From Gammaproteobacteria bacterium (lineage in GTDB: Bacteria > Pseudomonadota > Gammaproteobacteria > UBA4575), in the NCBI GenBank assembly GCA_965203725.1, contig CBDBDH010000001.1, positions 644,686 to 708,685 of the forward strand: a stretch of DNA of 64,000 nucleotides. Direction: 5' to 3'. The position numbers and the translations under genes are program-made. The notes below the pieces were generated by a model, which saw only the letters and a program-made list of their open reading frames with translations, searched no databases and was not told where the DNA came from. How positions within the stretch are numbered: position 1 is the stretch's first letter; every line of letters begins with the position of its first letter. This document shows positions 1,619-60,537 of the stretch, piece after piece.

Positions 1619-2001
1619 ACCGGCCTGCCGTGGCCTGTGCGGATCGTCCTCCCGGTCCGCACAGGGTGCGGGCACACACTGAGGGAGTTTTAGGCCATGT
1701 GAATCAGGGGTACTGGTGTACCCCTGACGTGCTGCCTTTGATCTGCCAGCGTGTCTCTCAATGCTCGTGCACGACCAGGAAGAGGCACAGAAGACAGGAT
1801 AGGATTCCCCAGGCTGGATTCTTGATGACTCGATCCGCTTTGCCGTTATAAGGAAGCATGTCAGCGTCCTGCAAGGCTTTTCCCGGTAATTTGTACAAGG
1901 CAGGATGGCCAGCTTCATGTCTGCGATCATGTCTCACTGTCACATGGCCTTCCTGTTTTCGAACTCCAAAGTTAGGGGCTTATATACGAAAGTTACCAAG
2001 A

Positions 2002-2298
2002 CTAATTGTCACGTCTAGAGTGCCACCAAGTAGTGGCACTTTTTGTCCCAGTAAGAACCCCTGTAATTACAAGCCAAGAAAATGCCGCCCAGAAAAATGT
2101 ATAAATTACAAAGCCAGAATATTTCATCCCTAAACAAATATTCATTATCTGCGACTCAGGTAAGTTAACATTGCCAGGCAGTTTGATAAGATCACCACAT
2201 TCATATACCCATATAGTGCCACTGCTCAAATCAGCACCACCAGCTACTGTAACGCCGATCATAAAGGAAATTAACAAAACTGGAATTTGTTTTTGCAT
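2002..2298 (-). CDS. Small hypothetical protein with N-terminal signal-peptide/TM segment
   Basis: ORF in low-GC stretch; N-terminus MQKQIPVLLISFMIGVTVAGG is hydrophobic. No family recognised. Confidence 0.3.
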   Translation of the reverse strand: MQKQIPVLLISFMIGVTVAGGADLSSGTIWVYECGDLIKLPGNVNLPESQIMNICLGMKYSGFVIYTFFWAAFSWLVITGVLTGTKSATTWWHSRRDN

Positions 2299-2419
2299 GG
2301 CTTCAAATAATGCAACATCATCAAAATAGGCTTACTTGGCTTTTCGCTTAACGGGCTTATCCATTTAAGAGAGTGCCATAGACTGTAACAGACCATCCCA
2401 TACAGAAAAAAGGCCGCGA

Positions 2420-2776
2420 TTATGGTACGTCAAGATATCCCTTGCAATGCTTTGTAACATGGCCTGCCATTTCTGAAAGTTGTTCAAGCATTTCACTAAG
2501 GGTTAGCCCCTTTGCTGGCTGCCATGTATACATCCTGCCTGCTGCTACTGTAAGCATTTCAGAAGCTGCCAAGCAATAACCTCTTATCGAAAAATTTACC
2601 GCTGCTGCAATTTTTGCATGGCTCCCAACAGTGCGTCCGGCTCTTGCTTTTCCTGTTTCACCTATAGTTCTAAAATAATCATTCATCCATGCTTCATCCG
2701 GGTTAGGCGGGTTTTCATTGGCATGACTGGATACGGCCAAGGCAAGCAATACAATTCCTAGTGTCCTGATAGTCAC
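2420..2776 (-). CDS. Hypothetical secreted protein
   Basis: N-terminal signal peptide (MTIRTLGIVLLALAVSSHA); 118 aa; low-GC region. Confidence 0.5.
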   Translation of the reverse strand: MTIRTLGIVLLALAVSSHANENPPNPDEAWMNDYFRTIGETGKARAGRTVGSHAKIAAAVNFSIRGYCLAASEMLTVAAGRMYTWQPAKGLTLSEMLEQLSEMAGHVTKHCKGYLDVP

Positions 2777-2879
2777 AATTCCTCCCCTTTTAATGTTTAT
2801 GTGTCTAACTAGGGTAACACTACAAAGGAGGCAATAAAGAGCTTGCTATAACCGAGCTTCACACAATGGAGAATGACAA

Positions 2880-3218
2880 ATGAACCGAATTACAAAGAGC
2901 ATTGCAGCAGCAGTATTTTTTGCATGTATCACACATACCCCGGCAAACACTCCAAAAATGAGTTTCGAAAAGGCAACAGAATTAGCCATAAATGATCCCG
3001 TATTTCTCGAACAATATTTGATGATTGGCAAGAGCCCGTGCGATGTTGATTTGCTTTTTGTTCTACTCAAAAAAGACTGGTATATCATTTGCCAAGGCTG
3101 CAGGGATTTTGAGCATATGGCAAAAGATTACTTGCCGCCTGAATTGATGCAGAAACTAAAATCCCCTGGACCTTGGTTATTCCAGGATTTGACTTATCAA
3201 GCGGGTATTTGTCCGTGA
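2880..3218 (+). CDS. Hypothetical secreted protein
   Basis: Signal peptide-like N-terminus (AAAVFFACITHTPA); RBS GGAGAATGACAAATG upstream; low GC. Confidence 0.5.
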   Translation: MNRITKSIAAAVFFACITHTPANTPKMSFEKATELAINDPVFLEQYLMIGKSPCDVDLLFVLLKKDWYIICQGCRDFEHMAKDYLPPELMQKLKSPGPWLFQDLTYQAGICP

Positions 3219-3249
3219 TTCTTCCAGTTATGAAAATGGAGACTAGCAA

Positions 3250-3651
3250 ATGAAAATCGCAATTCCTGGAATTGTCCTGCTACTGAGTGTGGGTACAGTT
3301 CAAGCGCATGGCATCGAAGTTGAACACGTAGAGCTTCTAACGAATAAGACGCTAGAACTCCATAACAGTCAGCACAAGCAAATACAAGAACTTAATGACG
3401 CTGTGAATGTATCTATGGATGTGATTAACAAAGCAATGGTTAACCTACACAACATGCAAGCTGTACTTATCTTAGAAACTCAACTTTCACATTTTCGCAA
3501 ACATGAAAAGGGGCTATGCCTAACTAATGACGAGTTTAATGAGATAATGATAGATATGGAAAACGTGCAATCTAAATCAGGAGTAGATGAAAACAAGATT
3601 GATGCCTTGCAAAAGGTATATAAAATGCTAACTAATATCTGTACAGAATGA
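3250..3651 (+). CDS. Hypothetical secreted coiled-coil protein
   Basis: Signal peptide MKIAIPGIVLLLSVGTVQA; RBS GGAGACTAGCAAATG; low GC. Confidence 0.5.
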   Translation: MKIAIPGIVLLLSVGTVQAHGIEVEHVELLTNKTLELHNSQHKQIQELNDAVNVSMDVINKAMVNLHNMQAVLILETQLSHFRKHEKGLCLTNDEFNEIMIDMENVQSKSGVDENKIDALQKVYKMLTNICTE

Positions 3652-3955
3652 CCAAACAAATCACATTCCTGCTAATGGCAAGCCTGTCTGTTTGCAGCTG
3701 CACCAAGAACCAGGATTTGCTAAAACAGATCACTACGAATCAAGATGCGTGGTGAAACAATCGGGAATTTCTCTACATCTAAGCAATCCATCCTGCTATA
3801 ACGGACCTAGTTCTCCTGTCGGCCGCAATACTCCACTGCCAACCTTCGCAGTTTGCCGCCCGTCGCGATTAGTATGTCATCATAGGTCCAGTAGGGATTG
3901 ACGCCGTTTCCCTTCACTAGTGGCTGCATGATGATCAGGTCGGTATCCTCGAATC

Positions 3956-4762
3956 TCACCCCACCATGCCAACAGCACTTGAGGATTGTGGCTTGCATCG
4001 ATCCAGTTTCTTTTTCGCTATACGCTCAATGCGACTTGCGACCTTCGCAACCGTGTCGAGTGAGACGTTGGCCGGTAAATGACCGTTGGGCAGGTACCTG
4101 GATATATAGCCTGCGCTGCCCCCCTGAAGTCCGAAACGGGTCGTTACGACATAGGCGACTGCTTCCGCTTCAATCTCTTTTGTACTTGTGTCCAAGTAAG
4201 CACGGCTTGGCCACCATTGATCCTGATCGCAGCCCAGATGACCCAAAAAGATGTGAGCGAGCTCATGACACAACACACCGAAACGGCTTGGTGGATCCAG
4301 ACCCTCATGAATCACAATATGCATCTTCCCGTCAGTCAGACGGTCATCGAACGTCGCAAATCCGCCATGGGTCGGTGAAAGTTCCTTGAAATCAACCCGA
4401 ACGCTGTCATGGCGGGCAGCATTGTTTACCATCCTCTTAAGCCATTTAGGGTTCCAATCCCCCTCAAAGTGTGCAAATCTTTTCAGCTCTTTGGGTAAGG
4501 TGTCGCCCTCAGTCTGATCCAGGTCATACACCAGAATGACCGGATGCATCGGGGCCAGAATGACCATAGGTCGGGTATCTTCCTTGAGCGTGTACCCGAA
4601 CCGGGCATACCAGGTCTTTTGAGTAGCAAAGAAACTGCAACTTGGGTTCTGGATTTTCACCAGCATGTTGTTGAAAGGGGAATACTGGCGAAAGCGGGCC
4701 ATGAAGCTGACCATCTCCTGAAACTTCTCTGTAGACCGATACACCCCACTGGCTCGCAGCAA
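3956..4762 (-). CDS. ArdC-like antirestriction-family protein (ssDNA-binding N-domain plus HExxH zincin peptidase domain); N-terminus possibly disrupted
   Basis: N-part YSPFNNMLVKIQ...ATQKTWYARFGYTLKEDTRPMVILAP matches the ArdC_N/DUF1738 pattern (YsGiNvllL...TfkQak.lGg.VrKGEk). C-part has HELAHIFLGH metal-binding motif. ORF track start is a TTG. Confidence 0.5.
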   Translation of the reverse strand: MLRASGVYRSTEKFQEMVSFMARFRQYSPFNNMLVKIQNPSCSFFATQKTWYARFGYTLKEDTRPMVILAPMHPVILVYDLDQTEGDTLPKELKRFAHFEGDWNPKWLKRMVNNAARHDSVRVDFKELSPTHGGFATFDDRLTDGKMHIVIHEGLDPPSRFGVLCHELAHIFLGHLGCDQDQWWPSRAYLDTSTKEIEAEAVAYVVTTRFGLQGGSAGYISRYLPNGHLPANVSLDTVAKVASRIERIAKKKLDRCKPQSSSAVGMVG

Positions 4763-7723: not shown

Positions 7724-8078
7724 GGTTTGTCTCCTTCCGCTTTCTGCGGTGTCCTATTTTTGAATAATCCACGACCTTGATACCGCTGGGCAGGACCTTC
7801 ACGGCATCAGGCTTCACTTTCTCGACATCCTGGGCCATCACGCCCATTTCGGTGGTCGGGTGTCCCTTGAACTTGTAGGTATACACGGCCAGGCCGTCCC
7901 GGGTCTCCCCCACCTTCTTGATGTCTTTCTTCACGCGCCGGTCACTCATGGCATAGGCCATGTAGCCAGCGACGCCCAACCCGCCCAGGTTCAGGAGGTT
8001 GTTGAAGCTGCTCTGCTTGGCGTTGGAACGGGCCTGTGCGACCCCGACCTCTCCGGCCCCAAGGGCGCTCGCCCCCAC
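7710..8078 (-). CDS. Peptidase S74 (intramolecular chaperone auto-processing) domain protein; probably the C-terminal remnant of a phage tail-fibre/spike gene
   Basis: AYAMSDRRVKKDIKKVGETRDGLAVYTYKFKGHPTTEMGVMAQDVEKVKPDAV matches the S74 domain signature (SDxRxKxxI ... Y.yk ... G.iAQeve...P.aV). Only 122 aa; no large upstream fibre ORF. Confidence 0.6.
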   Translation of the reverse strand: MGASALGAGEVGVAQARSNAKQSSFNNLLNLGGLGVAGYMAYAMSDRRVKKDIKKVGETRDGLAVYTYKFKGHPTTEMGVMAQDVEKVKPDAVKVLPSGIKVVDYSKIGHRRKRKETNRVRA

Positions 8079-8399: not shown

Positions 8400-8531
8400 A
8401 TGCTTATTTTGATGAGGCGATCTGGAGAAAAAATCAGGATCGGTGACGAGATCAAAGTGGAGATACTGGGGATTCAGGGCAATCACGTACGGATTGGCAC
8501 TCACGCGCCCCGACATGTGAAAGTCCATTGA
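8400..8531 (+). CDS. CsrA/RsmA-family RNA-binding protein homologue, C-terminally truncated (43 aa)
   Basis: Translation [43 protein letters not shown] aligns residue-for-residue with E. coli CsrA 1-43 ([43 protein letters not shown]). Ends before the R44 equivalent. GGA-rich leader AGGAAATTAAGGAAATG. Below the track's size cut-off. Confidence 0.65.
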
Positions 8532-10195: not shown

Positions 10196-10549
10196 TCATG
10201 TGATCGGCCATTCCCAGTCATGACCCAGACACTGGTAGCGGATAATCCCGCAGATCCTGTCCGCAGACATGCCGAAATGCTGTCCCAATTGCCTCCAGCT
10301 CAGCCCTGCCCTGCGCAGGCGTACTGCTTCCGTTACCTGCTCGTGGCTAAGCGAATGGCTTGCAGGCCCATACATGGACCTGTACATACTGAGACCCAGA
10401 CAGCCTGCACGGTACAACTGTCCACGCACTACCGCTGGGCTGACGCCATGCCGCCTGGCTACCTGTTTGACAATTTGGCCTTCCTCGTAAATCTGGCGCT
10501 TCCATTCGTCTACAGGGTAATGATCGGCTCTGCCCATACGTGCCCCCAC
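10196..10549 (-). CDS. Small DNA-binding protein with two resolvase-type (HTH_7-like) helix-turn-helix motifs
   Basis: Segments QIVKQVARRHGVSPAVVRGQLYR and LSHEQVTEAVRLRRAGLSWRQLGQHFGMSADRICGIIR resemble recombinase/resolvase C-terminal HTH. The overlapping opposite-strand ORF 10112-10567 has no features and is considered spurious. Confidence 0.45.
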   Translation of the reverse strand: MGARMGRADHYPVDEWKRQIYEEGQIVKQVARRHGVSPAVVRGQLYRAGCLGLSMYRSMYGPASHSLSHEQVTEAVRLRRAGLSWRQLGQHFGMSADRICGIIRYQCLGHDWEWPIT

Positions 10550-10804
10550 TGGTTAGTAAGATCATGATCGTGCGGCCTTGGGCTGGTTCAAGAATAAACC
10601 GGCCTGATCCGCTCCGTCTTGGTCAAATCACTATGCCGAAATTCAGGGATTTATCAAGCCTGCAGAACCGAAAATAACTCCCGGTATAAACACGATCGAC
10701 GGCGGGCATCCATCGCTTGCCCAAAATGCCGGACAAGGCTCCAGTCGGGCAATGCCGGGAAGTCCTGGCCCTGAATGAGACTGCTGAAGGCTCACTTTGG
10801 GCTG

Positions 10805-11270
10805 CCCAGTCTCAACCCCGCCCCCGCAGTCTCAAAATCCTTTGGAGTAGTCTCACAAAAATGGCAAATCGTCTCACTGCTATCTCACAATAACAGTAAT
10901 ATATTCATGTAGTTACGCAGTTTCCGGCAATTTTTGCCCCGATAATTCTCCAGAAATTGAACGCATTTAATTTCCGCGCAGAGATATCTATGTGTAGTTG
11001 CCTTGGAAGACCCTCTTAACCGGCGTATTTGAGGGTATAGGTGATGACAGACTTTCTTGCTCGCACGCACGTATATATGTGTATATACCACATTGTCCTA
11101 ATAATAATAATAAATATCTTATAAGTATTTATATTATATAGGATTATGCATGAGATAATGGTGAGACTAAATCGCTATTTTGTGAGACTAAATCGCTATT
11201 TCCTGAGACTGGGAACACTTTTTCAACCCACATTGAGACAGATTCTTCACGATTGAGACCGTGAAAAATG
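10805..11270. promoter_or_regulatory. AT-rich core flanked by phased 6-mer iteron-like repeats (GTCTCA x4-5 on left, TGAGAC x5 on right, about 22-bp spacing) including two 21-bp perfect direct repeats
   Basis: Left: ...cagtctcaaaatcc...agtctcacaaaaatggcaaatcgtctcactgctatctcaca. Right: gtgagactaaatcgctatttt gtgagactaaatcgctatttc ctgagactggg...attgagacag...gattgagaccg. Centre has (TAA)n/AT-rich sequence. Lies in the 1-kb divergent gap between the HTH gene and the RadC-led operon. Confidence 0.55.
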
Positions 11271-11587
11271 TCACTAACGCCTGATCCTGATCGGTTCACG
11301 ATGCCGTTTCAGCTGGACCTCGCGTCGGCTGAGATTACCCCTGGCTATGTATCCAAGACACGCCCTGCGGCCGTGAAAAAGCTTCGGCTGCCCAAATTTG
11401 AGGGTTCAGACGGCCCCCAGCCCGACATGCTGACGCGCTGCTGCCGGCAATGATCTTGGCTGACTGACGCCTCGATCACTCGCATGACGATGCAGCTCTT
11501 TTCCTAAATCTCGATCCGCAAGAGAGGGTTTACATATAGGACATAATGTCCTATACTATGCAATACTAACCATGGGTCTGATCCCAC

Positions 11588-12076
11588 TTGAATGAGCAAG
11601 GAGAAACTCATATGAAAAAACTCTCAAGCATGACGAGCAAGCAAAAGGACGAGACCGTCCAGCTTGCCATCAAGATTCTCTCTTACCGACATCGCGCAGG
11701 CCAAACCCTTGGCAGTCCCGATGAAACCTGCAACTACCTTTGCCTTCGGATGGCCGAATACCGCAATGAAGTGTTTGGCGCACTGTACCTAGACAACCTT
11801 TGCCGCATCATCGCGATCAAGGAGCTTTTCCAAGGCACAGTCAACTCGGCATCCGTGCATCCCCGTGTCGTGGTGCAAGAGGCCATGGAAGCGAATGCGG
11901 CAGCCGTCGTGTTCTTCCATAACCATCCTTCGGGAGTCGCCGAACCATCCCGAGCCGATGAAATGATTACCCGCAGACTCAAGGAAGCCTTGGCATTGGT
12001 CGATGTTCGAGTACTCGACCATTTTGTCGTGAGTGCGGGCGAGTCCGTTTCATTCGCGGAACGGGGATTGCTCTGA
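11588..12076 (+). CDS. RadC-like JAB/MPN-domain protein (UPF0758 family)
   Basis: Motif FFHNHPSGVAEPSRADEMITRRL (ExnHxHPSG...PSxxD JAMM signature); likely true start at MKKLSSM (about 11612). Confidence 0.75.
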   Translation: MNEQGETHMKKLSSMTSKQKDETVQLAIKILSYRHRAGQTLGSPDETCNYLCLRMAEYRNEVFGALYLDNLCRIIAIKELFQGTVNSASVHPRVVVQEAMEANAAAVVFFHNHPSGVAEPSRADEMITRRLKEALALVDVRVLDHFVVSAGESVSFAERGLL

Positions 12077-12157
12077 GACTTCCCAAATGTGCAGCTTCCC
12101 CGCGAGGCTGCGCACTTGGGAGGCCACAGGGGCTGACCGCAACGAGAAGGAGACGAC

Positions 12158-12595
12158 ATGCCAGAAGAGTACACAAGCGAGTTTCACGAGCAGCTATGCG
12201 CGACCTGCGCCGAGGCGGACCCGGATCAGCCGATCACGACCGCCCGCGAGATCGTCGCTGCTGCCCGCCAGATGAGCTACACCGACGAGGAGATTCACTG
12301 GAATGCCGGGGACGTGTTCAAGAACGTGTCCCTGACCGCACAGGAGGCGCGAGTCTGCCTGTACGTGAAGAACATGACCAAGGGGGGCGCTGCCCCCCTG
12401 TCCGATGAACACCGCGACCGTGCGGACGTCATCGCCCGTGAGAACGTGGAATACACCACCGATGACAACGGTATCACGACCGGGTACGTGGCATGGGGGG
12501 CCGGAGGCTTCGAGGCTGCGGGCAGCAGCGAGGCCGAAGTGCTCAACCACCTTGCCGAACAGATCGCCATCGAACTGAGAGACACAGGGATATGA
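12158..12595 (+). CDS. Hypothetical protein (145 aa), first cassette-like gene after RadC-like gene
   Basis: RBS GAGAAGGAGACGACATG; no family recognised. Confidence 0.55.
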   Translation: MPEEYTSEFHEQLCATCAEADPDQPITTAREIVAAARQMSYTDEEIHWNAGDVFKNVSLTAQEARVCLYVKNMTKGGAAPLSDEHRDRADVIARENVEYTTDDNGITTGYVAWGAGGFEAAGSSEAEVLNHLAEQIAIELRDTGI

Positions 12596-12735
12596 GACAG
12601 GAACTCAAGCATGCCCTGATCCAGTTCGGGGGCGTGGTGTTTGCGATCTGCATCCACCTCGCGCCCATCGCGCTGATCTGGCTGTTCACGGGCGAATTGC
12701 CGCCCATCTTCCAATCACAGGAGACACAACCATGA
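12591..12735 (+). CDS. Small hydrophobic single-TM peptide (48 aa), translationally coupled on both sides
   Basis: MRQELKHALIQFGGVVFAICIHLAPIALIWLFTGELPPIFQSQETQP. Its ATG overlaps the preceding stop (ATGA) and its TGA overlaps the next ATG (ATGA). Confidence 0.35.
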
Positions 12736-13193
12736 CCACCGAATACAAAACCCTGCACGCAGGGACCATGACCTTTGACAATGTCGAACCGGCCCGCCTC
12801 GTCGAGTTCAAGTGCGACACCGACGCTGTGAGCTTCAGTGCCGTGGACGATACCGGGACCATCGAGAAGATCGAAAAGGAGATCCGCCTGATGGTCTCCA
12901 GCGCCCTGTGCGGTGCCAAGGACAGCGGAGCCTTCGACATGGCATTCCAGCGCGGCTTCTGGGGCACCGTCGAGGTGTTCGTGACATGGCGCGTCATGCC
13001 GTCCACCGACGAGGCGACGCCCGCCCCTGAAGAGGACCACCAACTCCAGCAACAGGTCTGTGAGGATCTGGAGAAGGTACTTGAAGTGCTTGAGTTCTTT
13101 ATCCAGCACGACATGACCCTGCGTCTGGTTCCGGCACAGGCCATCGTCTGGAAAAACGCGATCGAGACCGCGCACGACGTCCTGTTCAGCTAG
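12732..13193 (+). CDS. Hypothetical protein (153 aa)
   Basis: Conserved start context ACAGGAGACACAACCATGACC. Confidence 0.55.
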   Translation: MTTEYKTLHAGTMTFDNVEPARLVEFKCDTDAVSFSAVDDTGTIEKIEKEIRLMVSSALCGAKDSGAFDMAFQRGFWGTVEVFVTWRVMPSTDEATPAPEEDHQLQQQVCEDLEKVLEVLEFFIQHDMTLRLVPAQAIVWKNAIETAHDVLFS

Positions 13194-13198
13194 GCGGA

Positions 13199-13255
13199 TG
13201 CGGATATGCCCCTTCTCACGAGGGGGCATTCCGGATCGGCATCGGCCTATCCATA
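13199..13255 (+). repeat. Leader hairpin, type I (degenerate copy)
   Basis: cggatatgcccc ttctcacga gggggcattccg upstream of the 13277 gene. Confidence 0.5.
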
Positions 13256-13276
13256 ACGAAGACAGGAGACAGAACC

Positions 13277-13702
13277 ATGACCTATGAATTCACACCCGAC
13301 CAGCTTGCATGGATTGAGGCGCTGGAGTCCGGCAAGTACAAGCAGGGCACCGGCGTCCTGAAACAAAACGATCAGGACGGCACAGCATGCTACTGCTGTC
13401 TCGGACTGGCCTGCGAAATACTCGACCCCGCCGGCTTCACCCCGCAAGCCCAGACCATCCCGCTCAAGGATGGCAGCAAACGCGACGCCTATCCCTATGT
13501 CGGGCTCGCCAGCTTCCTCGATGAAAGCATGGTGACACGCCTGCAACTGAACGGCACCGCCGGGGACTGCCTGGACACCGACGGCAAGCAGGTCGAGGGC
13601 CGCGACCTGGCCCACCTGAACGACAACGGCAGCAGCTTCGCTGAAATCGCGCAGCTGCTGCGCCAGCGCCCGGAACGCTACTTCGACAAGGTCGTCAGCT
13701 AG
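13277..13702 (+). CDS. Hypothetical protein (141 aa)
   Basis: Start context ACAGGAGACAGAACCATGACC preceded by imperfect leader hairpin. Confidence 0.55.
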   Translation: MTYEFTPDQLAWIEALESGKYKQGTGVLKQNDQDGTACYCCLGLACEILDPAGFTPQAQTIPLKDGSKRDAYPYVGLASFLDESMVTRLQLNGTAGDCLDTDGKQVEGRDLAHLNDNGSSFAEIAQLLRQRPERYFDKVVS

Positions 13703-13709
13703 AAGCTGT

Positions 13710-13762
13710 CCGGATATGCCTGTCGCAAGGCAGGCATATCCGGCTGGACTTCAGCCGATAAC
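13710..13762 (+). repeat. Leader element, type I: perfect palindrome CCGGATATGCCTG-N8-CAGGCATATCCGG plus GGCTG-gactt-CAGCC-GATAAC
   Basis: Read directly; identical copy at 14139-14191, near-identical at 14653-14709, related at 15966-16017. Confidence 0.8.
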
Positions 13763-13780
13763 AAGACAGGAGACACAACC

Positions 13781-14131
13781 ATGACCACTTACTACCCCCC
13801 TCAACCGAGCATCCAGCACTCCCCATGGGGACGGGTGCAGAACGAGATCACGCTGGCCGAAGGCATCACCTTCGTCGATACCGCAAGCCATGGCGGGATC
13901 AAGCTTTCCGCCGAGCGCGTCGCCCAGATGCCCCGAGGCGCACGCAAGACGTCTGGCTGGTACGAGGAAGACTGTGAGTCTCTCTGGCCCCTGAGCAAGT
14001 TCTGGGACGAGCTTGACCACGCCGCTCTGTTCGGGGCTGACGAGAAGGCCATCCAGAAGGCCCATGACTCGATTCAGGCAGGACTTGACCACTACGACAA
14101 CGACTTCTCGCGGGTACGAATGCACACCTAG
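13781..14131 (+). CDS. Hypothetical protein (116 aa)
   Basis: Preceded by type-I leader hairpin and ACAGGAGACACAACCATGACC. Confidence 0.55.
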   Translation: MTTYYPPQPSIQHSPWGRVQNEITLAEGITFVDTASHGGIKLSAERVAQMPRGARKTSGWYEEDCESLWPLSKFWDELDHAALFGADEKAIQKAHDSIQAGLDHYDNDFSRVRMHT

Positions 14132-14138
14132 AGACTAC

Positions 14139-14191
14139 CCGGATATGCCTGTCGCAAGGCAGGCATATCCGGCTGGACTTCAGCCGATAAC
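14139..14191 (+). repeat. Leader element, type I (identical copy)
   Basis: ccggatatgcctgtcgcaaggcaggcatatccggctggacttcagccgataac. Confidence 0.8.
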
Positions 14192-14211
14192 TACACAGGA
14201 GATAGAAAACC

Positions 14212-14646
14212 ATGACAGACGCAAGAGACATTACGGAGCGAGGACAAGCCATTGACTGGGTCGAGTCCACGCTGGAAAGCAATGCCCACTACGAACACGG
14301 CAGCGAGTACCTGGAGAACTTCATCAAGCAGGTCGTGACAGGCATCAAGGCGCCTATGCACGACACCAACACGTTGCAGGCGATCGTCGAGGCCCTGGAC
14401 GATCCGAAGGTCGAGGCCAGTGAAATCGTATCCGAGCACAGCTGGGTGTTGCTGGCCGAAGCCCTCGACAACTACTCGGTGGACCAGCTCATCAATGACG
14501 CGCTGGAGAAAGGCGTGGACGCCTACCGGGCGCACCATGTGTGCAGCGCCGACGTCAGTGAGCAGATGGGCACGGAGCTCATGGGGCACGGGCGCACGGA
14601 CCTGGTCGCCGGCCGCGAGGTCAACATGCCGCGGGAGGACGACTGA
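14212..14646 (+). CDS. Hypothetical acidic protein (144 aa)
   Basis: Preceded by type-I leader hairpin and ACAGGAGATAGAAAACCATGACA. Confidence 0.55.
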   Translation: MTDARDITERGQAIDWVESTLESNAHYEHGSEYLENFIKQVVTGIKAPMHDTNTLQAIVEALDDPKVEASEIVSEHSWVLLAEALDNYSVDQLINDALEKGVDAYRAHHVCSADVSEQMGTELMGHGRTDLVAGREVNMPREDD

Positions 14647-14652
14647 GGCTGT

Positions 14653-14709
14653 CCGGCGATGCCTGTGCTGCAAGGGGCAGGCATCCCCGGCTGGACTTCA
14701 GCCGATACC
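14653..14709 (+). repeat. Leader element, type I (variant copy)
   Basis: ccggcgatgcctgtgctgcaaggggcaggcatccccggctggacttcagccgatacc. Confidence 0.75.
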
Positions 14710-14728
14710 AAGACAAGGAGACACCCTT

Positions 14729-14980
14729 ATGAAAATGAAAACGACCAAGATCGCCGGCGGGTTCCAGACCGTCATTGAACCGGACCGGCCCGCAGCTGCG
14801 GACGGCCAGCGCTACACGCTGCTGTACGAGACTGACACCGGATGCGCCGAGGCCGATACGCAGGCCCGCGGCATCAGTGAGGCCATCCGCAACTTTCGCC
14901 GCGACGTGCCCGATGAGTACCACGGCGCAGACGCCTATATCACGGACGAGGACGGCTGCGAATACCCCATGGACTGGTAA
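14729..14980 (+). CDS. Hypothetical protein (83 aa)
   Basis: In frame within track ORF 14420-14980; preceded by type-I hairpin and AAGGAGACACCCTTATG. Confidence 0.5.
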   Translation: MKMKTTKIAGGFQTVIEPDRPAAADGQRYTLLYETDTGCAEADTQARGISEAIRNFRRDVPDEYHGADAYITDEDGCEYPMDW

Positions 14981-15004
14981 CCCTTAACGAGACAGGAGTA
15001 AGCC

Positions 15005-15436
15005 ATGAATAAAGAGAGACTGATGGAGCTGGCAGACCACATCGAGGCCGTGGGATACCAGCGGATCGTCAAGCGCAAGGGCACCAACCCTGAAGCGCAG
15101 TTCGACATGCGCCAATGGGTGCACGAGTGCGGCGCACCTGGCTGCATCGCGGGCCATGGCGTGAACCACTTCGAGCCCGACACCTATCAGGAGTGCCTGA
15201 AGCTGCAGGAAGGTCCGGACGAGGACGTGAATGCCATGCAGACGGCGATATCCAGGGAAGCCCAGAGGATCCTGGACCTGGACTACCTGACCGCATGCCG
15301 CCTGTTCAATCCGCATGCCATTGATAACGTGTACGACAGCGGACCCGATAAGGCGGCGGATGTGCTGCGCAAGCTGGCCGCCGGCCAGGGCGTCACCTGG
15401 TTTTCCCCCAGGGTGCGGGCGGAATTCGGAGTTTGA
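15005..15436 (+). CDS. Hypothetical protein (143 aa)
   Basis: RBS CAGGAGTAAGCCATG. Confidence 0.55.
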   Translation: MNKERLMELADHIEAVGYQRIVKRKGTNPEAQFDMRQWVHECGAPGCIAGHGVNHFEPDTYQECLKLQEGPDEDVNAMQTAISREAQRILDLDYLTACRLFNPHAIDNVYDSGPDKAADVLRKLAAGQGVTWFSPRVRAEFGV

Positions 15437-15438
15437 CC

Positions 15439-15750
15439 ATGGCCCGCCGGAAATACACGATCAAGTCCAGCCCGAACATCCGCATGTTCGAGGTGCAGAT
15501 GCGCGACCGCTCGGAGCGGTTCGTGCTGGCCCGCATCGGCCACGCTAAGGTGCGGATCTGCACGCTCGGCATGTGGACGAAGCTTTACCACGACCGGCGC
15601 TTCTTCGAGCGCGTGGTGGTGCGCGAGCTCGAGCTGGACGCCGACATGCGGGCGCGGGTGCGCAAGGCCATGAGCCCGCACATGCGCCGGCACAAACCCA
15701 CCAGATTCACGGACCAGGTCATTGCGACCGTACAGGAGAACGCCGCATGA
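15439..15750 (+). CDS. Hypothetical basic protein (103 aa)
   Basis: ATG 3 nt after previous stop; in frame with track ORF 15433-15750. Confidence 0.5.
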   Translation: MARRKYTIKSSPNIRMFEVQMRDRSERFVLARIGHAKVRICTLGMWTKLYHDRRFFERVVVRELELDADMRARVRKAMSPHMRRHKPTRFTDQVIATVQENAA

Positions 15751-15959
15751 ACGACATCGACGCACGGATCACGCTCAGCAGCTCGAAATGCCGCATCGAG
15801 CCGGTATCGGATACCGCCAGGGACTGGCTGGAACAGCACGTGTTCCGCATGACCACCGGCTACGAGTTCGGCCCCGTGCAGGGCAAGCGCGTACACGACG
15901 ACATGCTCAAAGTCGGCATGACCCTGCATATCGTGGAGGTGACCCACCACTTCGAGTGA
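15747..15959 (+). CDS. Hypothetical protein (70 aa)
   Basis: ATGA start/stop overlap with preceding gene; ACAGGAGAACGCCGCATGA; in frame with track ORF 15573-15959. Confidence 0.45.
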   Translation: MNDIDARITLSSSKCRIEPVSDTARDWLEQHVFRMTTGYEFGPVQGKRVHDDMLKVGMTLHIVEVTHHFE

Positions 15960-15965
15960 GGCGCA

Positions 15966-16017
15966 CCGGCATAGCCTGTGCAGGCTGCAGGCTATCCCGG
16001 CCAGCTTCGGCCGAAAC
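15966..16017 (+). repeat. Leader element, type I-related
   Basis: ccggcatagcctgtgcaggctgcaggctatcccggccagcttcggccgaaac. Confidence 0.6.
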
Positions 16018-16045
16018 TGAGAAACCCAAAATACAGGAGAAAACC

Positions 16046-16486
16046 ATGACCAATACATCCACCACCCACCCGCAGCTCGAATCCGACTTCGGGCCCGTCA
16101 TTCACACGTATACACGCGCACAGGCCATCGAGGACGGTGTGCTCATCGATGTGTCCAAAACCGCACGAGAGGCCGGATTTACCCTGCCTGTGGCCATAAC
16201 CGCGGCTGCCTATGCCGACACCGTGGAATGGACGAAAGCGGATAGTGAGCGGCAACGCGTCTACCAAGACCAGAGCGGGCGCCTTTGGGATGCCCTTTAC
16301 ATGGCGGTTTTTGCAATACGAGCGCGAAGCGCCAGACCAAACGATACCACGATGGAATACGAGTTTTACCGAGTGCCGTGTGGCGGCAGGGCCACCAAGC
16401 CGCGTCGAGTCACTCTCAAGCTGGTGATCGGTCCGGGCGATGATGCAGAGCCGGTCGTCACAATCATGATGCCGGACGAGGACTGA
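16046..16486 (+). CDS. Hypothetical protein (146 aa)
   Basis: Preceded by leader hairpin and ACAGGAGAAAACCATGACC; in frame with track ORF 15722-16486. Confidence 0.55.
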   Translation: MTNTSTTHPQLESDFGPVIHTYTRAQAIEDGVLIDVSKTAREAGFTLPVAITAAAYADTVEWTKADSERQRVYQDQSGRLWDALYMAVFAIRARSARPNDTTMEYEFYRVPCGGRATKPRRVTLKLVIGPGDDAEPVVTIMMPDED

Positions 16487-16499
16487 CCGGGGCAGCCAG

Positions 16500-16545
16500 G
16501 GGCACAGGGATCGTGCCCGCCGTCTGCGGGTGTGTTTGCCCGTAC
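16500..16545 (+). repeat. Leader element, type II: GGGCACAGGGATCGTGCCC hairpin (GGA in loop) plus CGGGTGTGTTTGCCCG
   Basis: Read directly; homologous copy at 17669-17716. Confidence 0.7.
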
Positions 16546-16593
16546 CGATGAAGGGGGAACCCAGAAACGGCAACCAAAGAAGGAGACCAAACC

Positions 16594-16965
16594 ATGACCA
16601 CAGAAGACAAGTATTTCGACCTGCAGACGACCGGCGTGGGCTACCTGCGCAAGGTGGACGACCACGAGCCGCCGACGATCACCATCGCCGCCCTTCGCGG
16701 CAGAACCGGAGATGTCCAGTACACACACTTCGAGTGCGGGGTCGTGGGCAGCAAGGCACAGGCCACCGTTAAGGAGCTCCGGGGAGCCGTTGACGACGGA
16801 CTGAGAGTCCTGATCGGCTTCACGCTCAGCGATCTGCATCTGGAGCTCAGCACCTATCAGGGCGGCGAGCGCGACGGCCAGACCAAGGCTCGGCTGAAAG
16901 GACGCTTGCTGCGAATTTCCTATACGAAGGTGGAAGGACAACCATTCATCCCGAACGCCGCATAA
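16594..16965 (+). CDS. DUF3577-like protein (family typical of ICE/genomic-island cargo)
   Basis: YFDLQTTGVGYLRKV...ITIAALRG...YTHFECGVVG...KARLKGRLL resembles the DUF3577 signature as I recall it (YF.LhtrGiGYlnR...aL.G...Y..FdcrV.G). Preceded by type-II GGA-loop hairpin and AAGGAGACCAAACCATGACC. Confidence 0.55.
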   Translation: MTTEDKYFDLQTTGVGYLRKVDDHEPPTITIAALRGRTGDVQYTHFECGVVGSKAQATVKELRGAVDDGLRVLIGFTLSDLHLELSTYQGGERDGQTKARLKGRLLRISYTKVEGQPFIPNAA

Positions 16966-17035
16966 AGCAGCAGGAAACGGCCCTCTGGGATTCCAGGGGG
17001 CCCGGCACCAATCACAACACAGGAGAACCAAAACC

Positions 17036-17398
17036 ATGAGAACGATGAGCACACGGCTCGACGACCACAAAACCAGTGGCATGGTAAACACCACGCCATC
17101 TGACTGGTACACGAGTCACCTGACACACCAGCCCACCATAACCACGCACCTGAGCGCGGACGAGAAGGGCGTGGCGTTCAAGACCCTGCGGAACAACGAC
17201 GTGATCGAGGATGGCTACATTGCACTCGATGAGGTGAGGACGGCCGGCAAGCGCCGCAACCTGATCCGCCGCATGACCCGCGAGAGCAACCAGTTGCTGA
17301 TCGACGGTCCGGAATCCGAGCTAAAGCTGTTGGGCATCATGCAATCGGCCAAGAGCTGCCAGATCGGACTGAAGCGCCAACATGTAGTAGTGGTATAG
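17036..17398 (+). CDS. Hypothetical protein (120 aa)
   Basis: Preceded by hairpin GGCCCTCTGGGATTCCAGGGGGCC and ACAGGAGAACCAAAACCATG. Confidence 0.5.
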   Translation: MRTMSTRLDDHKTSGMVNTTPSDWYTSHLTHQPTITTHLSADEKGVAFKTLRNNDVIEDGYIALDEVRTAGKRRNLIRRMTRESNQLLIDGPESELKLLGIMQSAKSCQIGLKRQHVVVV

Positions 17399-17480
17399 GC
17401 CCAACGGGCCGGGCATCGCCGAGCCCCAGCTCAAACAGATTGCCCGGCCCCGAAGGCCATCAAACCTAATGGAGGTAAAC

Positions 17481-17648
17481 ATGCCCGATGACATCTATAC
17501 CCGAAACGGCTACCGCGACCGCCGCGACTACCTAGGCACCCTGGCTGACCAGTATGGCGTAGACTTCCATACCGTGGCGGCCATGGCCGAGATCCTGGGC
17601 AAGGACGAGGACTTTGATGGCTTGGTCACAGAACTGGAGAACTTCTAG
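17481..17648 (+). CDS. Small hypothetical protein (55 aa)
   Basis: RBS AATGGAGGTAAACATG; acidic peptide MPDDIYTRNGYRDRRDYLGTLADQYGVDFHTVAAMAEILGKDEDFDGLVTELENF. Confidence 0.35.
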   Translation: MPDDIYTRNGYRDRRDYLGTLADQYGVDFHTVAAMAEILGKDEDFDGLVTELENF

Positions 17649-17668
17649 GGCAGTCTTTGAACGGGACA

Positions 17669-17716
17669 CGGGGCACAGGGAAGTGCCCCGGCTATCTACG
17701 GGTGTGTTACCCGTAC
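17669..17716 (+). repeat. Leader element, type II: GGGGCACAGGGAAGTGCCCC plus ACGGGTGTGTTACCCGT
   Basis: Loop CACAGGGAAGUG resembles the high-affinity CsrA site RUACARGGAUGU. Confidence 0.7.
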
Positions 17717-18161
17717 TGATATAGGTGAAAGCCAGAAACAGGTAACGTAACGGAAGCCAACCATGAATGTGAATGACGACTCCACCAGCATAGAGCGGGT
17801 GAAGCTCTGCAAGGCGGTGAATTTCGCCACAAAGGAGGCACTCCACGTTATCCTGAATGACGAGTGCCACAAACCTTGGAAGGTGCCAAAATGGCTAAAT
17901 CATGCACATTAGCTAAAAAACGGCTTACGAGGATGGCCTGTAAGCGACGATCTCGACCTTGGCCGTATCCTAGTACCCCTGAAATCCGCATGGTTTTTGT
18001 ACAATTGGATGAGCGCAGGAACAGGGAATCCGATGCACACAGCCCTAACGTTCGGGCCTTTTTCCGGCCCTCAGTGGATCCCCATGGAAGCCATGTGCAA
18101 TGCTGTAACGCCGCTCGGGGAGTATGATGAGATCACACCACGAGCTTTAGGAATCTTCAGT

Positions 18162-18374
18162 ATGAAATCAACATCACGTATAAGGCCCTTGGACAGGGAA
18201 GAACTGAAGCGAATCCGAAAACGCACGGGGAAGTCCCTGGCCGAATTTGCTCCCCTGCTGGGCATGACTGGCCAAGGTGCCCGCCGTACTGTCCGCCGCT
18301 TTGAATCGGGAAAAGAACTTCCGCGTGATTCTGTTCTGGAGCGGTATCACGCGCTGCGTGAAGGAAAATTGTAA
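18162..18374 (+). CDS. Small HTH-type protein, paralogue 1 (70 aa)
   Basis: LDREELKRIRKRTGKSLAEFAPLLGMTGQGARRTVRRFESGKELPRDSVLERYHALREGKL, about 45 % identical to the next gene. Confidence 0.45.
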   Translation: MKSTSRIRPLDREELKRIRKRTGKSLAEFAPLLGMTGQGARRTVRRFESGKELPRDSVLERYHALREGKL

Positions 18375-18407
18375 CTGCGCGAGCTGTCCGAATTATCTGG
18401 AGTACAC

Positions 18408-18656
18408 ATGAAATCAGAACCAGACATTGAGCCCCTGACTACAGAGGAACTCCGCCAAATCAGAGAGGATTCAGGATTAACTAAAGCAGAGCTTGCCTGC
18501 CTGTTCGGTCTGTCGGACAGACGCGTCATCCGTCGCTATGAATCGGAATTGGGAGATTTCTGCCCGTCACGACCTGTGCAGAGACTGTACCATCTGTTGC
18601 GCGAAGGGAAACTGAATCATCTGGTGCGAAAAGTGAAGAAACTGCGCAAGGCGTAA
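18408..18656 (+). CDS. Small HTH-type protein, paralogue 2 (82 aa)
   Basis: LTTEELRQIREDSGLTKAELACLFGLSDRRVIRRYESELGDFCPSRPVQRLYHLLREGKL. Confidence 0.5.
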   Translation: MKSEPDIEPLTTEELRQIREDSGLTKAELACLFGLSDRRVIRRYESELGDFCPSRPVQRLYHLLREGKLNHLVRKVKKLRKA

Positions 18657-37933: not shown

Positions 37934-38149
37934 GGTTATCCTAGCCAATTCGCTGTGTATGGCACAAGGCATTCACGAGACCTCCCAAAAAGTGTCGTTA
38001 ATCTACATATCTCTGGATTCAAGCCACCTGAATGTGGCCTAACTAGAATCGACAGTGCAAAGTGAAGTCCGCTCACCATTGTATAGAGCCCAACCGAAAA
38101 CTCTGGCCAGACACTCTGTATCAAAACGGATACTTTAAAAATCTTGGGT

Positions 38150-38878
38150 TCAAGCTAAGGCCTCAAACTCCTTGTTCTTGCAAGGCAAAAAATTGGATGG
38201 CCACGGACTGACCAACTTACAAAGCAACTGGTATTGGACCGGTGCATATTTATTAACCTGCTCAACTGTTACTCTGACCTGATTTAAGTCTGTGGATTTG
38301 ATCAGCTGCGTGAATTCAGCAGAATAGTAGCGAGGGGCATAGCCAACAATGGTGATCGGATCGCCAGTACGCATCAGTAAAGCCATTTCATCTTGAGAGT
38401 TTTGCAAATCCTGCAACAAGTACAATCGTTCACCAACTTGCATTTGAAGTGCACGTTTCCTGTCTTCCTCATGTAGGTGCCGTAGTCCCCTACAAAAAAA
38501 GTGCACTTCGTAATTTTTCCATACTGTAGGTTCAGGACACGGAAACAGTTCCAGGGAATCCGTAGCACGCAATCCGCCTGTACGGGCAAGCTCTTCCAGC
38601 TCGTCATAGCGAGCCTCTGACAGCCCCAGCCAATAGAGATAATCCTTATATTCTGGACGATTCTTGGCCAAGATCCGACTAGTAAACATCGGAAAGAGTT
38701 CTTCGGATTCGTATACCTTGTACAAATCCTGCATACGCCCAAATCGGTGAGATTCAGGCATTTCCTCAGCACCTCGCGTGTAAACGAACTTGTAGAGATC
38801 GTCTTCCCTGGTAAGCCTTCCAACCGGTGCCCACTTCCTGGTCTTGGAATCCTGCCATGCGACAAATAGAGCTTTCAT
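38150..38878 (-). CDS. Protein with HipA N-terminal-subdomain-like (HipS-like) region; putative partner of the upstream kinase
   Basis: ALFVAWQDSKTRKWAPVGRLTREDDLYKFVYT...LFPMFTSRIL resembles the HipA N-terminus (LVTWMNNQRVGELT...FKY...FFDNLLPEG). Low GC; 25 nt downstream of the kinase gene. Confidence 0.45.
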   Translation of the reverse strand: MKALFVAWQDSKTRKWAPVGRLTREDDLYKFVYTRGAEEMPESHRFGRMQDLYKVYESEELFPMFTSRILAKNRPEYKDYLYWLGLSEARYDELEELARTGGLRATDSLELFPCPEPTVWKNYEVHFFCRGLRHLHEEDRKRALQMQVGERLYLLQDLQNSQDEMALLMRTGDPITIVGYAPRYYSAEFTQLIKSTDLNQVRVTVEQVNKYAPVQYQLLCKLVSPWPSNFLPCKNKEFEALA

Positions 38879-38902
38879 TGTGTCCGTCCTCTTTGCTAGA
38901 AA

Positions 38903-50900: not shown

Positions 50901-51335
50901 TCCGTCCCCGAAATTACATATGCATTCCTCATCAACCTTTAAGAAATTTTTTGCTAGAGCTGACGGCTTTGCAATCAGGCTGCTTACAGCTCGTACTTCA
51001 GTACACTATTGCTAACAGATCGTCTTCTATAATTTAAGTTGGCCAACGCAAGGTCTATAGAACACCTCTCCTGAAATTCTAAGTTTACAGTTAAAAGTGT
51101 TGTGTATAGGCCTTTCAGATACTCTCACCCTATCCCACCAACGCACCCAATTGAATGAAAGTACCGCCTGGAGTTCTGATAATTTTTGATAACCCATAGT
51201 AGATAGTGTAAGTTCACATCTTGCCTAGTAAGAGGAAGTCTCAGCTAAGCAATATTAGTTGTTCTCAAGCGCCGAGTCTGGACGGTGCGGGCACCACGAA
51301 GCTAGTGGCTAGCAGGGTCAGATAAAATAACAATA

Positions 51336-52637: not shown

Positions 52638-52713
52638 CCGTTTCTGAAAACGTCATATACTGAAGTACCCCTCGACTGTATTCGACTTGTCAGATCGATA
52701 GTAAGGCATTTAC

Positions 52714-53532: not shown

Positions 53533-53672
53533 ACTGATTCGTCGGGCACACACTTCACAGAACTTGAACTGGATTTTAGAGAAAGAATGTCTTTCTCCAT
53601 TACCTGACAATTTCTAGATTGAAGTTGACAAAATAGGACGTTAGTAGATTGCAGTCACTATGAGTGTGAAAG

Positions 53673-54182: not shown

Positions 54183-54704
54183 CTATTTTTGTCGTTTTAC
54201 ATTATCAAGGAGTAATACACAGTCTCGGTGGCAATCCGGATGACTATCCTCATAATCCATAAACTGTAGCAACTCCATGCTCTAGTGATGCTATTAAGCC
54301 AAGACGTCCTATAGCCTGACCGTCAAATATACTTGAAATGTCAGCTTTGCTATCACATTCAAATGTAATTTAGCCTTTATCAGATAGGCGGGCTATGTGT
54401 GGGGCTACGAAAAGACCATTGGTTCCATCCAATTGCTCCACAGAAGTCTCACATACTCACCATGGATTTATATGGCAACCAATTAAATGGCGAGAATTGC
54501 TAAAACCCGTAGCACGACAACGGGGTTCTATCCGTCCTATTTTGCGGTGAACTACTCTTTCCCTCTTTCTAGCCTTTAATGACAAATTTCTATTCTATTT
54601 ACTCAGGTGTAGCTTCAACTCCTATGTTTGAGTTTCTCCAATTAGACTTGCTTTTTTCTCTCATAATTTCTCTTTACTGTTCTCATCTCCGTAGCAAAAT
54701 GGAT

Positions 54705-60532: not shown

Positions 60533-60537
60533 AGCTG

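Follow-up and report, generated by a model that had tools for sequence, protein, structure and literature searches.

Hammerhead-type and two-hairpin RNA modules in the spacers of a radC-headed array of small genes

In 2011, integrated mobile elements were reported to carry clusters of hammerhead ribozymes that flank single genes, among them the anti-restriction gene ardA (Perreault et al. 2011, PMC3088659). These clusters cut polycistronic RNAs of approximately 2 kb into pieces the length of a gene in vitro and, in the case of the ardA cluster, in E. coli, and the cores of the bacterial hammerheads conform almost universally to the consensus (PMC3088659). The locus presented here lies in a stretch of 64,000 nucleotides (nt) from a gammaproteobacterium of the UBA4575 lineage (contig CBDBDH010000001.1; hereafter, the window), and consists of an operon that opens with a radC-like gene and continues with 15 small genes, the long spacers of which carry structured RNA modules of two kinds: a hammerhead-type element and a pair of hairpins named type 1. 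The reading that we favour, with moderate confidence, is that this operon belongs to a rare lineage of radC-headed “small-gene arrays” of integrative elements, in which the spacers would process or insulate the individual cistrons.

The clustered hammerheads are the closest known arrangement, and the two hammerhead-type copies of the window depart from the conserved core and score below the Rfam threshold. The initial annotation, made from the sequence alone, could not name the locus as a known system, yet it is precisely the second element type reported in it that places the arrangement in this known class. As in the system of 2011, there are several hammerheads per transcript, located between variable small genes and, in the relatives of the window array, near integrases. 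Unlike in that system, every type III copy carries here a 5' hairpin with a GGA loop, most cores are off consensus, an array can hold up to nine copies, half of the long spacers are not hammerheads and the window copies are degenerate. In the literature that was searched, no description was found of a GGA-loop hairpin present in every case, of a majority of cores off consensus, of up to nine copies per array or of the type 1 substitute module, and the coupling of a CsrA-type hairpin to the ribozymes and the type 1 module appear to be undescribed.

The operon and its relatives

In agreement with the initial annotation, which gave about 15 ORFs of 48-162 aa, the radC-like gene is followed by 15 consecutive + strand open reading frames (ORFs) of 47-153 amino acids (aa), and the resulting 16 ORFs, all of them intact, span 11612-17912. 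Two further features recognised at that time also hold: ATGA overlaps, at the junctions 12592, 12732 and 15747, and a repeated start context, ACAGGAGA-N7-ATGAC, which appears three times exactly (12717, 13262 and 13766) and four times with up to one mismatch, against 0.04 expected. A five-member family of direct repeats (D1) spans this ACAGGAGA ribosome-binding site (RBS) and start context. When both strands were searched for σ70-like promoters between 11000 and 18800, a single site was found, upstream of radC, and no promoter hexamers were found inside the spacers. Since just one promoter-like site serves the array, the region is supported as a single operon of unrelated small genes of the mobile-element type.

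Six relatives, L001, L003 (with L155), L205, L208, L210 and L211, were obtained via protein look-ups from metagenome assemblies and one metagenome-assembled genome. Each of their arrays opens with radC, or with DUF3085 followed by radC, and contains 5-23 small genes separated by spacers of around 70-120 nt; a tyrosine integrase is encoded near three of the six (L205, L208 and L210), accompanied in L205 and L208 by AlpA. Together, the seven arrays encode 92 proteins of 39 families, of which 20 have a single member, and the gene order varies from one array to another. Furthermore, the window spacer 13191-13268 has a counterpart of 88% identity in L211 (17474-17549) with different genes at its sides, which indicates that spacers move independently of the genes they adjoin. 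All this supports the earlier suggestion of a modular cargo built by recombination. Nearly every intercistronic gap of more than ~60 nt in the lineage is a structured RNA module in the sense of the mRNA; among the long spacers of the window, two are hammerhead-type (both with core substitutions) and six are type 1. Both kinds of module are followed by an unstructured A/C-rich leader, a consensus Shine-Dalgarno (AGGAG) and ATG-AC(C/A). The features of the window are the following:

11529-11557 (+): σ70-like promoter TTTACA-17-TATACT, sole site of the region
11612-12076 (+): radC-like JAB-domain gene, the first of the operon (PF04002, E=2.5e-42)
12082-12143 (+): two-hairpin spacer module after radC (folding z -2.9/-2.8)
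12158-13193 (+): three coupled ORFs (12158-12595, 12592-12735 and 12732-13193) with ATGA overlaps; no family match in Pfam or PHROGs
13202-13257 (+): type 1 module wE, divergent (dG -31.5, z -7.1)
13277-13702 (+): ORF of 141 aa, phrog_18067 of PHROGs (unknown function)
13710-13762 (+): type 1 module wA (z -5.6)
13781-14131 (+): DUF7007 gene, between the identical modules wA and wB (PF22653, E=1.4e-23)
14139-14191 (+): type 1 module wB, identical to wA (repeat family D2; z -5.5)
14212-14646 (+): ORF of 144 aa, without family in Pfam or PHROGs and with a homologue in L211 (BLAST comparison)
14653-14709 (+): type 1 module wC, with altered arms, one mismatch and tail GAUACC (z -3.4)
14729-15959 (+): four ORFs (14729-14980, 15005-15436, 15439-15750 and 15747-15959) with short or overlapping junctions
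15966-16017 (+): type 1 module wD, with compensatory arm changes and tail GAAAC (pattern match and folding)
16046-16486 (+): DUF6573 gene (PF20213, E=7.4e-29)
16491-16576 (+): hammerhead-type element 1 (model R1, 77.7 bits, E 1e-16)
16594-16965 (+): DUF3577 gene (PF12101, E=5.3e-31)
16966-17480 (+): hairpin spacer 16966-17035 (z -2.4), ORF 17036-17398 and hairpin spacer 17399-17480 (z -4.6)
17481-17648 (+): ORF of 55 aa, of a family also present in L001 and L211 (BLAST families)
17662-17747 (+): hammerhead-type element 2 (model R1, 77.4 bits, E 1.3e-16)
17763-17912 (+): final small ORF, 49 aa
18162-18656 (+): pair of HTH (HTH_31-like) regulator genes at the end of the unit, conserved in that position in the L001 and L205 arrays
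8400-8531 (+): truncated CsrA-family ORF, 43 aa (PF02599, E=4.3e-18)

The lineage is rare in the collections that were searched. Hammerhead spacers are absent from 80 RadC loci (49-95% identity) of JGI metagenomes, among which only L155 belongs to the lineage, and array-type spacers were found neither in 38 RadC loci from IMG/VR nor in 80 DUF7007 loci of reference genomes, which came from a scan with the DUF7007 profile and were searched with the hammerhead model R1 described below. Near and distant DNA searches of plasmid and phage collections returned nothing, and an exact-pattern scan of viral contigs gave no type 1 module and, for an 18-mer of the P0 hairpin (see below), only chance hairpins. 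Of the occurrences elsewhere that the initial annotation had proposed to look for, those found are in the arrays of the relatives, in the sense strand; spacer elements were found outside the operon neither in the 64 kb nor in the flanks of the relatives, all copies being on the + strand.

A palindrome, TATAGGACATAATGTCCTATA, occupies positions 11535-11555, between the promoter hexamers, and is probably an operator; it may serve the HTH proteins encoded at 18162-18656. The arrays of L001 and L205 have a matching promoter/palindrome layout upstream, and perfect palindromes of the type TATAGGAC-N5-GTCCTATA are located between the -35 and the -10 in all three (window 11535-11555, L001 ~7798-7822 and L205 3323-3343). 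Around 300 nt before the radC promoter, at 11161-11260, there are also iteron-like direct repeats, comprising two copies of GTGAGACTAAATCGCTATTT and more copies of TGAGAC.

The hairpins of the spacers might be thought of as attenuators or terminators grading the expression along the operon, given that strong GC-rich hairpins are found 5-15 nt past most stop codons. However, no T-run follows any of them and the + strand has no hairpin-plus-T-run site between 11000 and 18800, as the initial annotation had already pointed out; moreover, one promoter attends to 16 genes, most of which would stay unexpressed if termination were efficient. We consider this explanation very unlikely.

Concerning the proteins, the DUF3577 gene had been taken as the only recognisable family, although DUF7007 (13781) and DUF6573 (16046) are likewise above the Pfam threshold, these three being the matches of the array besides radC. 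The window RadC is 92% identical to that of L001 (P0036) and at least 90% identical to that of L211 (P0156, in a common 90% cluster). The family of the 12732 product is found in five arrays (window, L001, L003, L205 and L211), and a protein search with this product returned only itself. A fold check on the small proteins had been recommended, and that of DUF7007 yielded an AF2 model with a pLDDT of 89.6 and no fold match in the PDB. PHROGs provides no functions for the array proteins. Homologues of DUF6573 are carried by 266 plasmids (143 of them predicted to be conjugative), where they lie in series of small genes that include radC, and a Variovorax plasmid is an example of RadC and DUF6573 in a conjugative setting; this context gives partial support to the reading of these genes as mobile-element “establishment genes”. 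In all-against-all BLASTP, shared segments join the DUF7007 protein to two shorter proteins of the array in one 10-member cluster (including window 13781, 14729 and 17481, and L001 10001, 11112 and 12451), a sequence pattern that hints at domain shuffling among array genes. Finally, a weak PhotoRC-I Rfam match within the radC coding sequence (window 11898-11937, and also L211 10287-10326; 27 bits, with a threshold of 45) probably reflects the conservation of the coding sequence.

The hammerhead-type spacers and the GGA-loop hairpin

The second element type, correctly reported before two genes (16487-16593 and 17649-17762), belongs to the hammerhead ribozyme family, an identity that had been missed: in both spacers, the predicted fold is a three-way junction preceded by a hairpin (P0). 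Rfam scans of the relatives at an E-value threshold provide the bridge to the known family, with six hammerhead type III matches in spacers of L001, showing the core CUGAUGAG...CGAAAC, and further type III matches in L205 and L211 (E from 7e-6 to 0.06 in the relatives overall). In L208, two hammerhead type II matches are above the gathering score (47.6 and 45.5 vs 37). The two type II spacers of L208 (11908-12005 and 12435-12532) are identical 98-nt direct repeats flanking the DUF6573 gene, a disposition paralleled in the window by DUF7007, which lies between two identical copies of type 1 (13710 and 14139). The DUF3577 gene is preceded by a hammerhead-type spacer in five of the five arrays that have it.

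The covariance model R1 was built from a hand alignment of 11 copies with four helices (P0 and stems III, I and II), in which 87.9% of the cells are paired and 15 of the 21 pairs are changed on both sides, values that no shuffle equals. R1 recovers 27 copies, of which 20 are spread over six arrays and seven belong to L211, all on the + strand and all in spacers, and gives nothing comparable in ~2.6 Mb of other RadC and DUF7007 loci, where the best score is 20.9 bits. In the R1 alignment, which includes both window copies, 96.4% of the cells are paired and 18 of the 21 pairs have changed on both sides (0 of 500 shuffles; slid controls, 37-47%). The hammerhead architecture is under selection, and the window copies share in it, with three covarying helices and an N-U-H cleavage triplet with A15.1-U16.1. 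In element 1, the P0 hairpin (16500-16518, loop AGGGAUC) is followed by a stem III (16519-16523) that pairs well with ACGGC, and the putative cleavage site is after 16524, between GUC (16522-16524) and U; in element 2, P0 spans 17668-17687, its loop CAGGGAAG matching CANGGANG, and the putative cleavage site is after 17694, between AUC (17692-17694) and U.

The G.U pairs of the elements, several of them in stem I, exist only in the sense reading and are mismatches on the opposite strand. Together with the strict sense-strand orientation, this supports a role at the RNA level, which agrees with part of the options (RNA processing, regulatory or recombination site) that the initial annotation had left for the palindromes. 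Would a role at the DNA level (as attC-like recombination sites, as single-strand promoters or priming sites of leading regions, or as REP/MITE repeats), account for the same facts? Gene content and order are indeed shuffled between arrays, a spacer can reappear between other genes, one gene is flanked by the direct repeats wA and wB, and RadC and DUF6573 are present on conjugative plasmids. Nevertheless, every element lies in the sense orientation, a hammerhead core can be read from one strand alone, and on the other strand the G.U pairs become A.C mismatches. Furthermore, the 64 kb contain neither an integron integrase (20 larger ORFs against Pfam) nor a homologue of the integrases of the relatives, and no RYYYAAC/GTTRRRY boxes; the perfect palindromes have no bulged bases, the spacers have no promoter hexamers, and there are no copies elsewhere in the 64 kb, in the plasmid, phage and viral-contig collections or, with R1, in the 80 DUF7007 loci. 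A DNA-level function of this kind is therefore held to be highly unlikely, and the attC/integron cassette in particular was ruled out on the features checked (absence of a GTT box, a CGATAAC that does not fit RYYYAAC, and arms that are perfect or compensated).

The P0 hairpin deserves separate attention. All 25 type III-like spacers have, 5-15 nt past the stop codon, a GC-rich hairpin of 5-8 bp whose loop, A-N-G-G-A-Y, is closed by C-G. In most copies the loop is CANGGANG, the RsmE/CsrA consensus, and the remaining ones are near matches; in the window, CAGGGAAG at 17676 lies in an 8-bp stem and AGGGAUC at 16506 is a near match. This consensus (CANGGANG/RUACARGGAUGU) is documented (PMC6849547), and the hairpins have the GGA in the loop and agree, fully or nearly, with (A/U)CANGGANG(U/A), making them predicted CsrA sites. 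The exact 8-mer CANGGANG in a stem of at least 4 bp occurs 11 times in the L001 array and five times in that of L205; beyond the arrays it is absent from the same strand of these two loci, and on the opposite strand of L001 it appears once. In addition, the L205 array is closed by an intact CsrA gene (10476-10640; PF02599, E 2.7e-24), and the window has the CsrA-family ORF at 8400-8531 (48-54% identity in tblastn; profile positions 1-43 of 53), with a stop at the position of Arg44 beyond which the similarity continues (to 8549), probably a pseudogene of an island-borne csrA, judging by its sequence. A CsrA homologue is present in five of the 212 loci examined: two of the seven arrays (L205 and the window) versus three of the other 205.

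From these data, binding of CsrA to the P0 hairpins may be predicted, and one could go further and propose that the stop-proximal hairpins are mainly CsrA/Rsm binding sites, for the protein of the element or that of the host, devoted to translational control and not to processing. This would not exclude the processing or insulating role that we favour, and it is a tentative proposal, possible but short of probable. To the constancy of the GGA loop, the confinement of the exact 8-mer to the arrays in L001 and L205 and the distribution of csrA it can add the second GGA contained in each Shine-Dalgarno and the frequency of csrA alleles on plasmids, phages and integrative and conjugative elements (ICEs) (PMC7366521). 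Conversely, csrA is missing from the examined flanks of five of the seven arrays, the type II hammerheads of L208 lack the GGA loop, the window type 1 loops are AAGGC and not GGA (most type 1 apices being UUC-N-GAG and not ANGGA), and ribozyme cleavage would part the hairpin from the downstream RBS. No paper linking CsrA to natural hammerheads was found in the literature searched.

The two-hairpin module

Type 1 is an RNA module separate from the hammerhead element. It corresponds to the ~55-nt element that had been described as near-identical in at least five spacers, and which is present and, within the 64 kb, exclusive to the operon, although the near-identity was overstated. The palindrome pattern CCGGNNNNGCCTG-N6-14-CAGGCNNNNCCGG is found at 13710, 14139, 14653 and 15966 (0.00 expected) and nowhere else in the 64 kb, and only the first two have perfect 13-bp arms; those at 14653 and 15966 have one mismatch each and different arms, and the fifth copy (13202-13257) is divergent. 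The block of the second hairpin, CCGGCTGGACTTCAGCCGATAAC, has three occurrences, with 0 expected. In wA, a perfect hairpin with 13-bp arms (H1) abuts a second one (H2, GGCUG-GACUU-CAGCC), followed by the tail GAUAAC. A module of the same architecture, previously overlooked, lies in the spacer after radC (12077-12157), with a long hairpin of apex UUC-N5-GAG, a short hairpin and a tail ending ...GCAAC, and L205 and L208 have orthologous spacers after radC.

Considering the whole lineage, 19 copies (18 distinct) from the seven arrays all fold into H1 and a short H2, with z from -2.6 to -7.1; for the window copies, dinucleotide-preserving shuffles gave z of -5.6, -5.5, -3.4, -1.8 and -4.1. No base separates H1 from H2 in 14 of the 18 copies, and a single-stranded tail ends in (A)AC. 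The apex, from the loop outward, is C-G, U-A, U.G in 13-14 of the 18 copies, giving UUC-N3-5-GAG, while positions 4-13 of H1 show three to five pair types each and its length ranges from 9 to 16 bp. H2 usually begins with GG and finishes with CC, and a middle GG can pair with the upstream or with the downstream CC. As MAFFT did not bring all copies into one register, covariation was tabulated on structure-anchored positions. A model made from the window copies (R2) is too sequence-specific and finds only the window and L210, and loose structural descriptors were dropped for being too permissive (~1 match per kb, on both strands). Scans of the window, L001, L205, L208 and L211 gave no Rfam 15 match to type 1. 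Two structural ideas were also set aside: a closing helix resembling stem III in the fold of wA was rejected because it is not conserved in other copies, and the interpretation of H1 as a plain homologue of P0 was weakened by the apices, mostly UUC-N-GAG and not ANGGA.

Type 1 and hammerhead modules are interchangeable and occupy equal slots. The slot upstream of DUF6573 holds a type III hammerhead in three arrays, a type II in one and a type 1 in two, and the spacers around DUF7007 and radC vary likewise in module type between arrays. There is, besides, a third conserved spacer type, absent from the window, which ends in ...CCAAC(A/U)AUCAA-N4-5-CUUAGGAG and precedes mostly one gene family (L003 10386-10485; L205 8374-8494; L208 11588-11685; L211 12509-12625 and 17016-17137).

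A joint and more daring reading would make of type 1 a new RNA processing element replacing hammerheads, be it a self-cleaving motif or the target of a dedicated nuclease, and of the CsrA-type hairpin a device by which a protein gates the spacers. CsrA would hold the hairpin to the Shine-Dalgarno that follows until the ribozyme cuts the link, and “slow” core variants (A9U, U4C) would set the delay of each gene after the element is switched on. In its entirety, this combination seems to us improbable.

Present state of the island and known counterparts

Several points weigh against the processing part of the favoured reading. The type III scores of the relatives (28-44 bits) are below the Rfam gathering score of 48.5, and Rfam detects neither window copy even at E <= 10. 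Element 1 has the core CCGAUGA (U4C) and A.A at 10.1/11.1 beside it, and element 2 has the core CUGAUAU (G8A, A9U) and a weak stem III, so the conserved core is kept in neither. Among the 25 type III-like copies, a core that is canonical or shows U3/A8 covariation is seen in only about six; position 9 is U in nine, position 4 is C in four, and C3 is followed by a 2-nt insertion in four. As both window copies deviate at core positions, these ribozymes are probably weak or dead, to judge from their sequence, and cleavage in this genome may be slow or absent. Type 1, for its part, has no internal loop or junction with a catalytic look, so that processing by it is only putative, and the lineage sample comprises only seven arrays, six of them metagenomic relatives. 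As for U4C, it considerably lowers the activity in vitro, yet the activity in vivo suffices for viroid infectivity (PMC3088659). Canonical-core spacers are found in the relatives (L001 14127-14230, L211 13852-13956 and L210 10798-10882). The variant CUGAUGU, with U at position 9, is shared by nine of the 25 type III-like copies, from the window, L001, L205 and L211, with compensatory stem changes (for example, L205 5570-5672, L211 18630-18730 and L001 15701-15798), which suggests a selected variant rather than random decay.

The mutated cores, along with the truncated csrA homologue and the lack of window homologues of the relatives' integrases, could also be taken to mean that the island is dying and that its type 1 modules and two hammerhead-like elements, once hammerhead spacers, are decaying and by now mere hairpins; the end of type 1 (short hairpin and GA(N)AAC) does resemble a hammerhead stem II with GAAAC. 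Even so, the architecture and the apex of type 1 are kept in 18 distinct copies of seven arrays with divergent stems, unlike what neutral decay would leave, type 1 coexists with canonical-core hammerheads in L001 and L211, and the 16 operon ORFs of the window are intact, with a GC3 of 0.60 for radC and of 0.77-0.81 for the four others computed. We judge the relic explanation unlikely. What the weak or dead ribozymes, the truncated csrA and the missing integrase do suggest is that the window holds an ageing island whose genes are still intact.

The surroundings of this island are chromosomal (Rho, PhoX, DinB and a TonB-dependent receptor are encoded in the window) and mosaic in GC content. The 64 kb contain no tRNA genes; no homologue of the integrases or AlpA of the relatives was found in them (tblastn, three tyrosine integrases), and relaxase, type IV secretion and integrase domains are absent from the 20 larger ORFs (Pfam). 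Islands of low GC (41-49%) interrupt a chromosome of 62-72% GC at 2000-4000, 38000-40000, 51000-55000 and 60000-61000; one of them harbours a HipA-like kinase beside a HIRAN-domain protein (38150-39874), and another an M78 peptidase/HTH pair (59999-60900).

With regard to the working of these arrays, a single promoter bearing an operator would transcribe the whole set of genes, and each spacer would divide the polycistronic RNA or, at the least, insulate its parts structurally. The upstream cistron would keep a protective 3' hairpin, and the downstream RNA would start with the folded ribozyme stems followed by an open leader with strong ribosome binding. The outcome would be a uniform, context-independent expression of interchangeable genes, for whose shuffling the repeated spacers could supply the homology. 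The lineage is a compact natural system to address the role of bacterial hammerheads, with up to nine ribozyme-type spacers per operon and graded core variants, and it also offers a non-ribozyme substitute in identical slots and a conserved CsrA-type hairpin together with an element-encoded CsrA. If the spacers insulate, they would explain how freely shuffled orphan genes are expressed in mobile elements and would constitute natural parts for the design of synthetic operons; cleavage of type 1, if it takes place, would make of it a new processing motif.

Besides the clustered hammerheads, several known systems invite comparison with the arrays. Samuel et al. (2024) are said to have described anti-defence islands in conjugative leading regions, and the analogy with such regions or with ICE cargo, already raised in the initial annotation, holds loosely. 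In both cases there are runs of small orphan genes with RadC-like and SSB-like (DUF3577) genes on transmissible elements, and DUF6573 and RadC do occur on conjugative plasmids. In contrast, no oriT or single-strand promoter was seen in the window, nor a relaxase or type IV secretion system (20 larger ORFs against Pfam), no known anti-defence family, including the ArdA/ArdC/KlcA/PsiB types, is found among the array proteins (Pfam and PHROGs), and the relatives adjoin a tyrosine integrase or AlpA. With integron cassettes and their attC sites, the arrays share promoterless unrelated small genes, a palindrome between genes and a content that varies between relatives; unlike them, they have no IntI and no core sites, their palindromes are perfect or compensated as RNA stems are, and the elements, ribozyme motifs among them, precede the RBS by a constant distance.

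Other comparisons concern the RNA level. Twister-sister, pistol, hatchet and the RAGATH motifs are ribozyme candidates associated with gene neighbourhoods, as cited in PMC5737381, and, as far as that citation goes, type 1 resembles them in being a structured RNA in hammerhead/twister slots near particular gene classes, and differs in being a plain pair of stacked hairpins with no evident junction or pseudoknot and without an Rfam 15 match. Csr/Rsm targets and the mobile CsrA paralogues (CsrT of Legionella ICEs; PMC6849547, PMC7366521) have in common with the arrays a loop GGA matching CANGGANG, a GGA in the Shine-Dalgarno and a csrA gene in the element; unlike those targets, the sites described here precede many cistrons and are fused to a ribozyme.

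The hairpins located directly past the stop codons recall those between the early and late genes of phage T7. There, irregular duplexes of about 20 bp are cut by RNase III of the host, which leaves a stabilising 3' hairpin upstream and frees the downstream RBS; H1 is shorter (9-16 bp) and its cleavage putative. Lastly, in synthetic insulators of the RiboJ type, a hammerhead and a defined leader standardise the 5' end and make expression independent of the upstream sequence. In comparison with them, the arrangement of these arrays, with its putative insulation, is natural and multi-copy, and is placed between cistrons instead of after the promoter.

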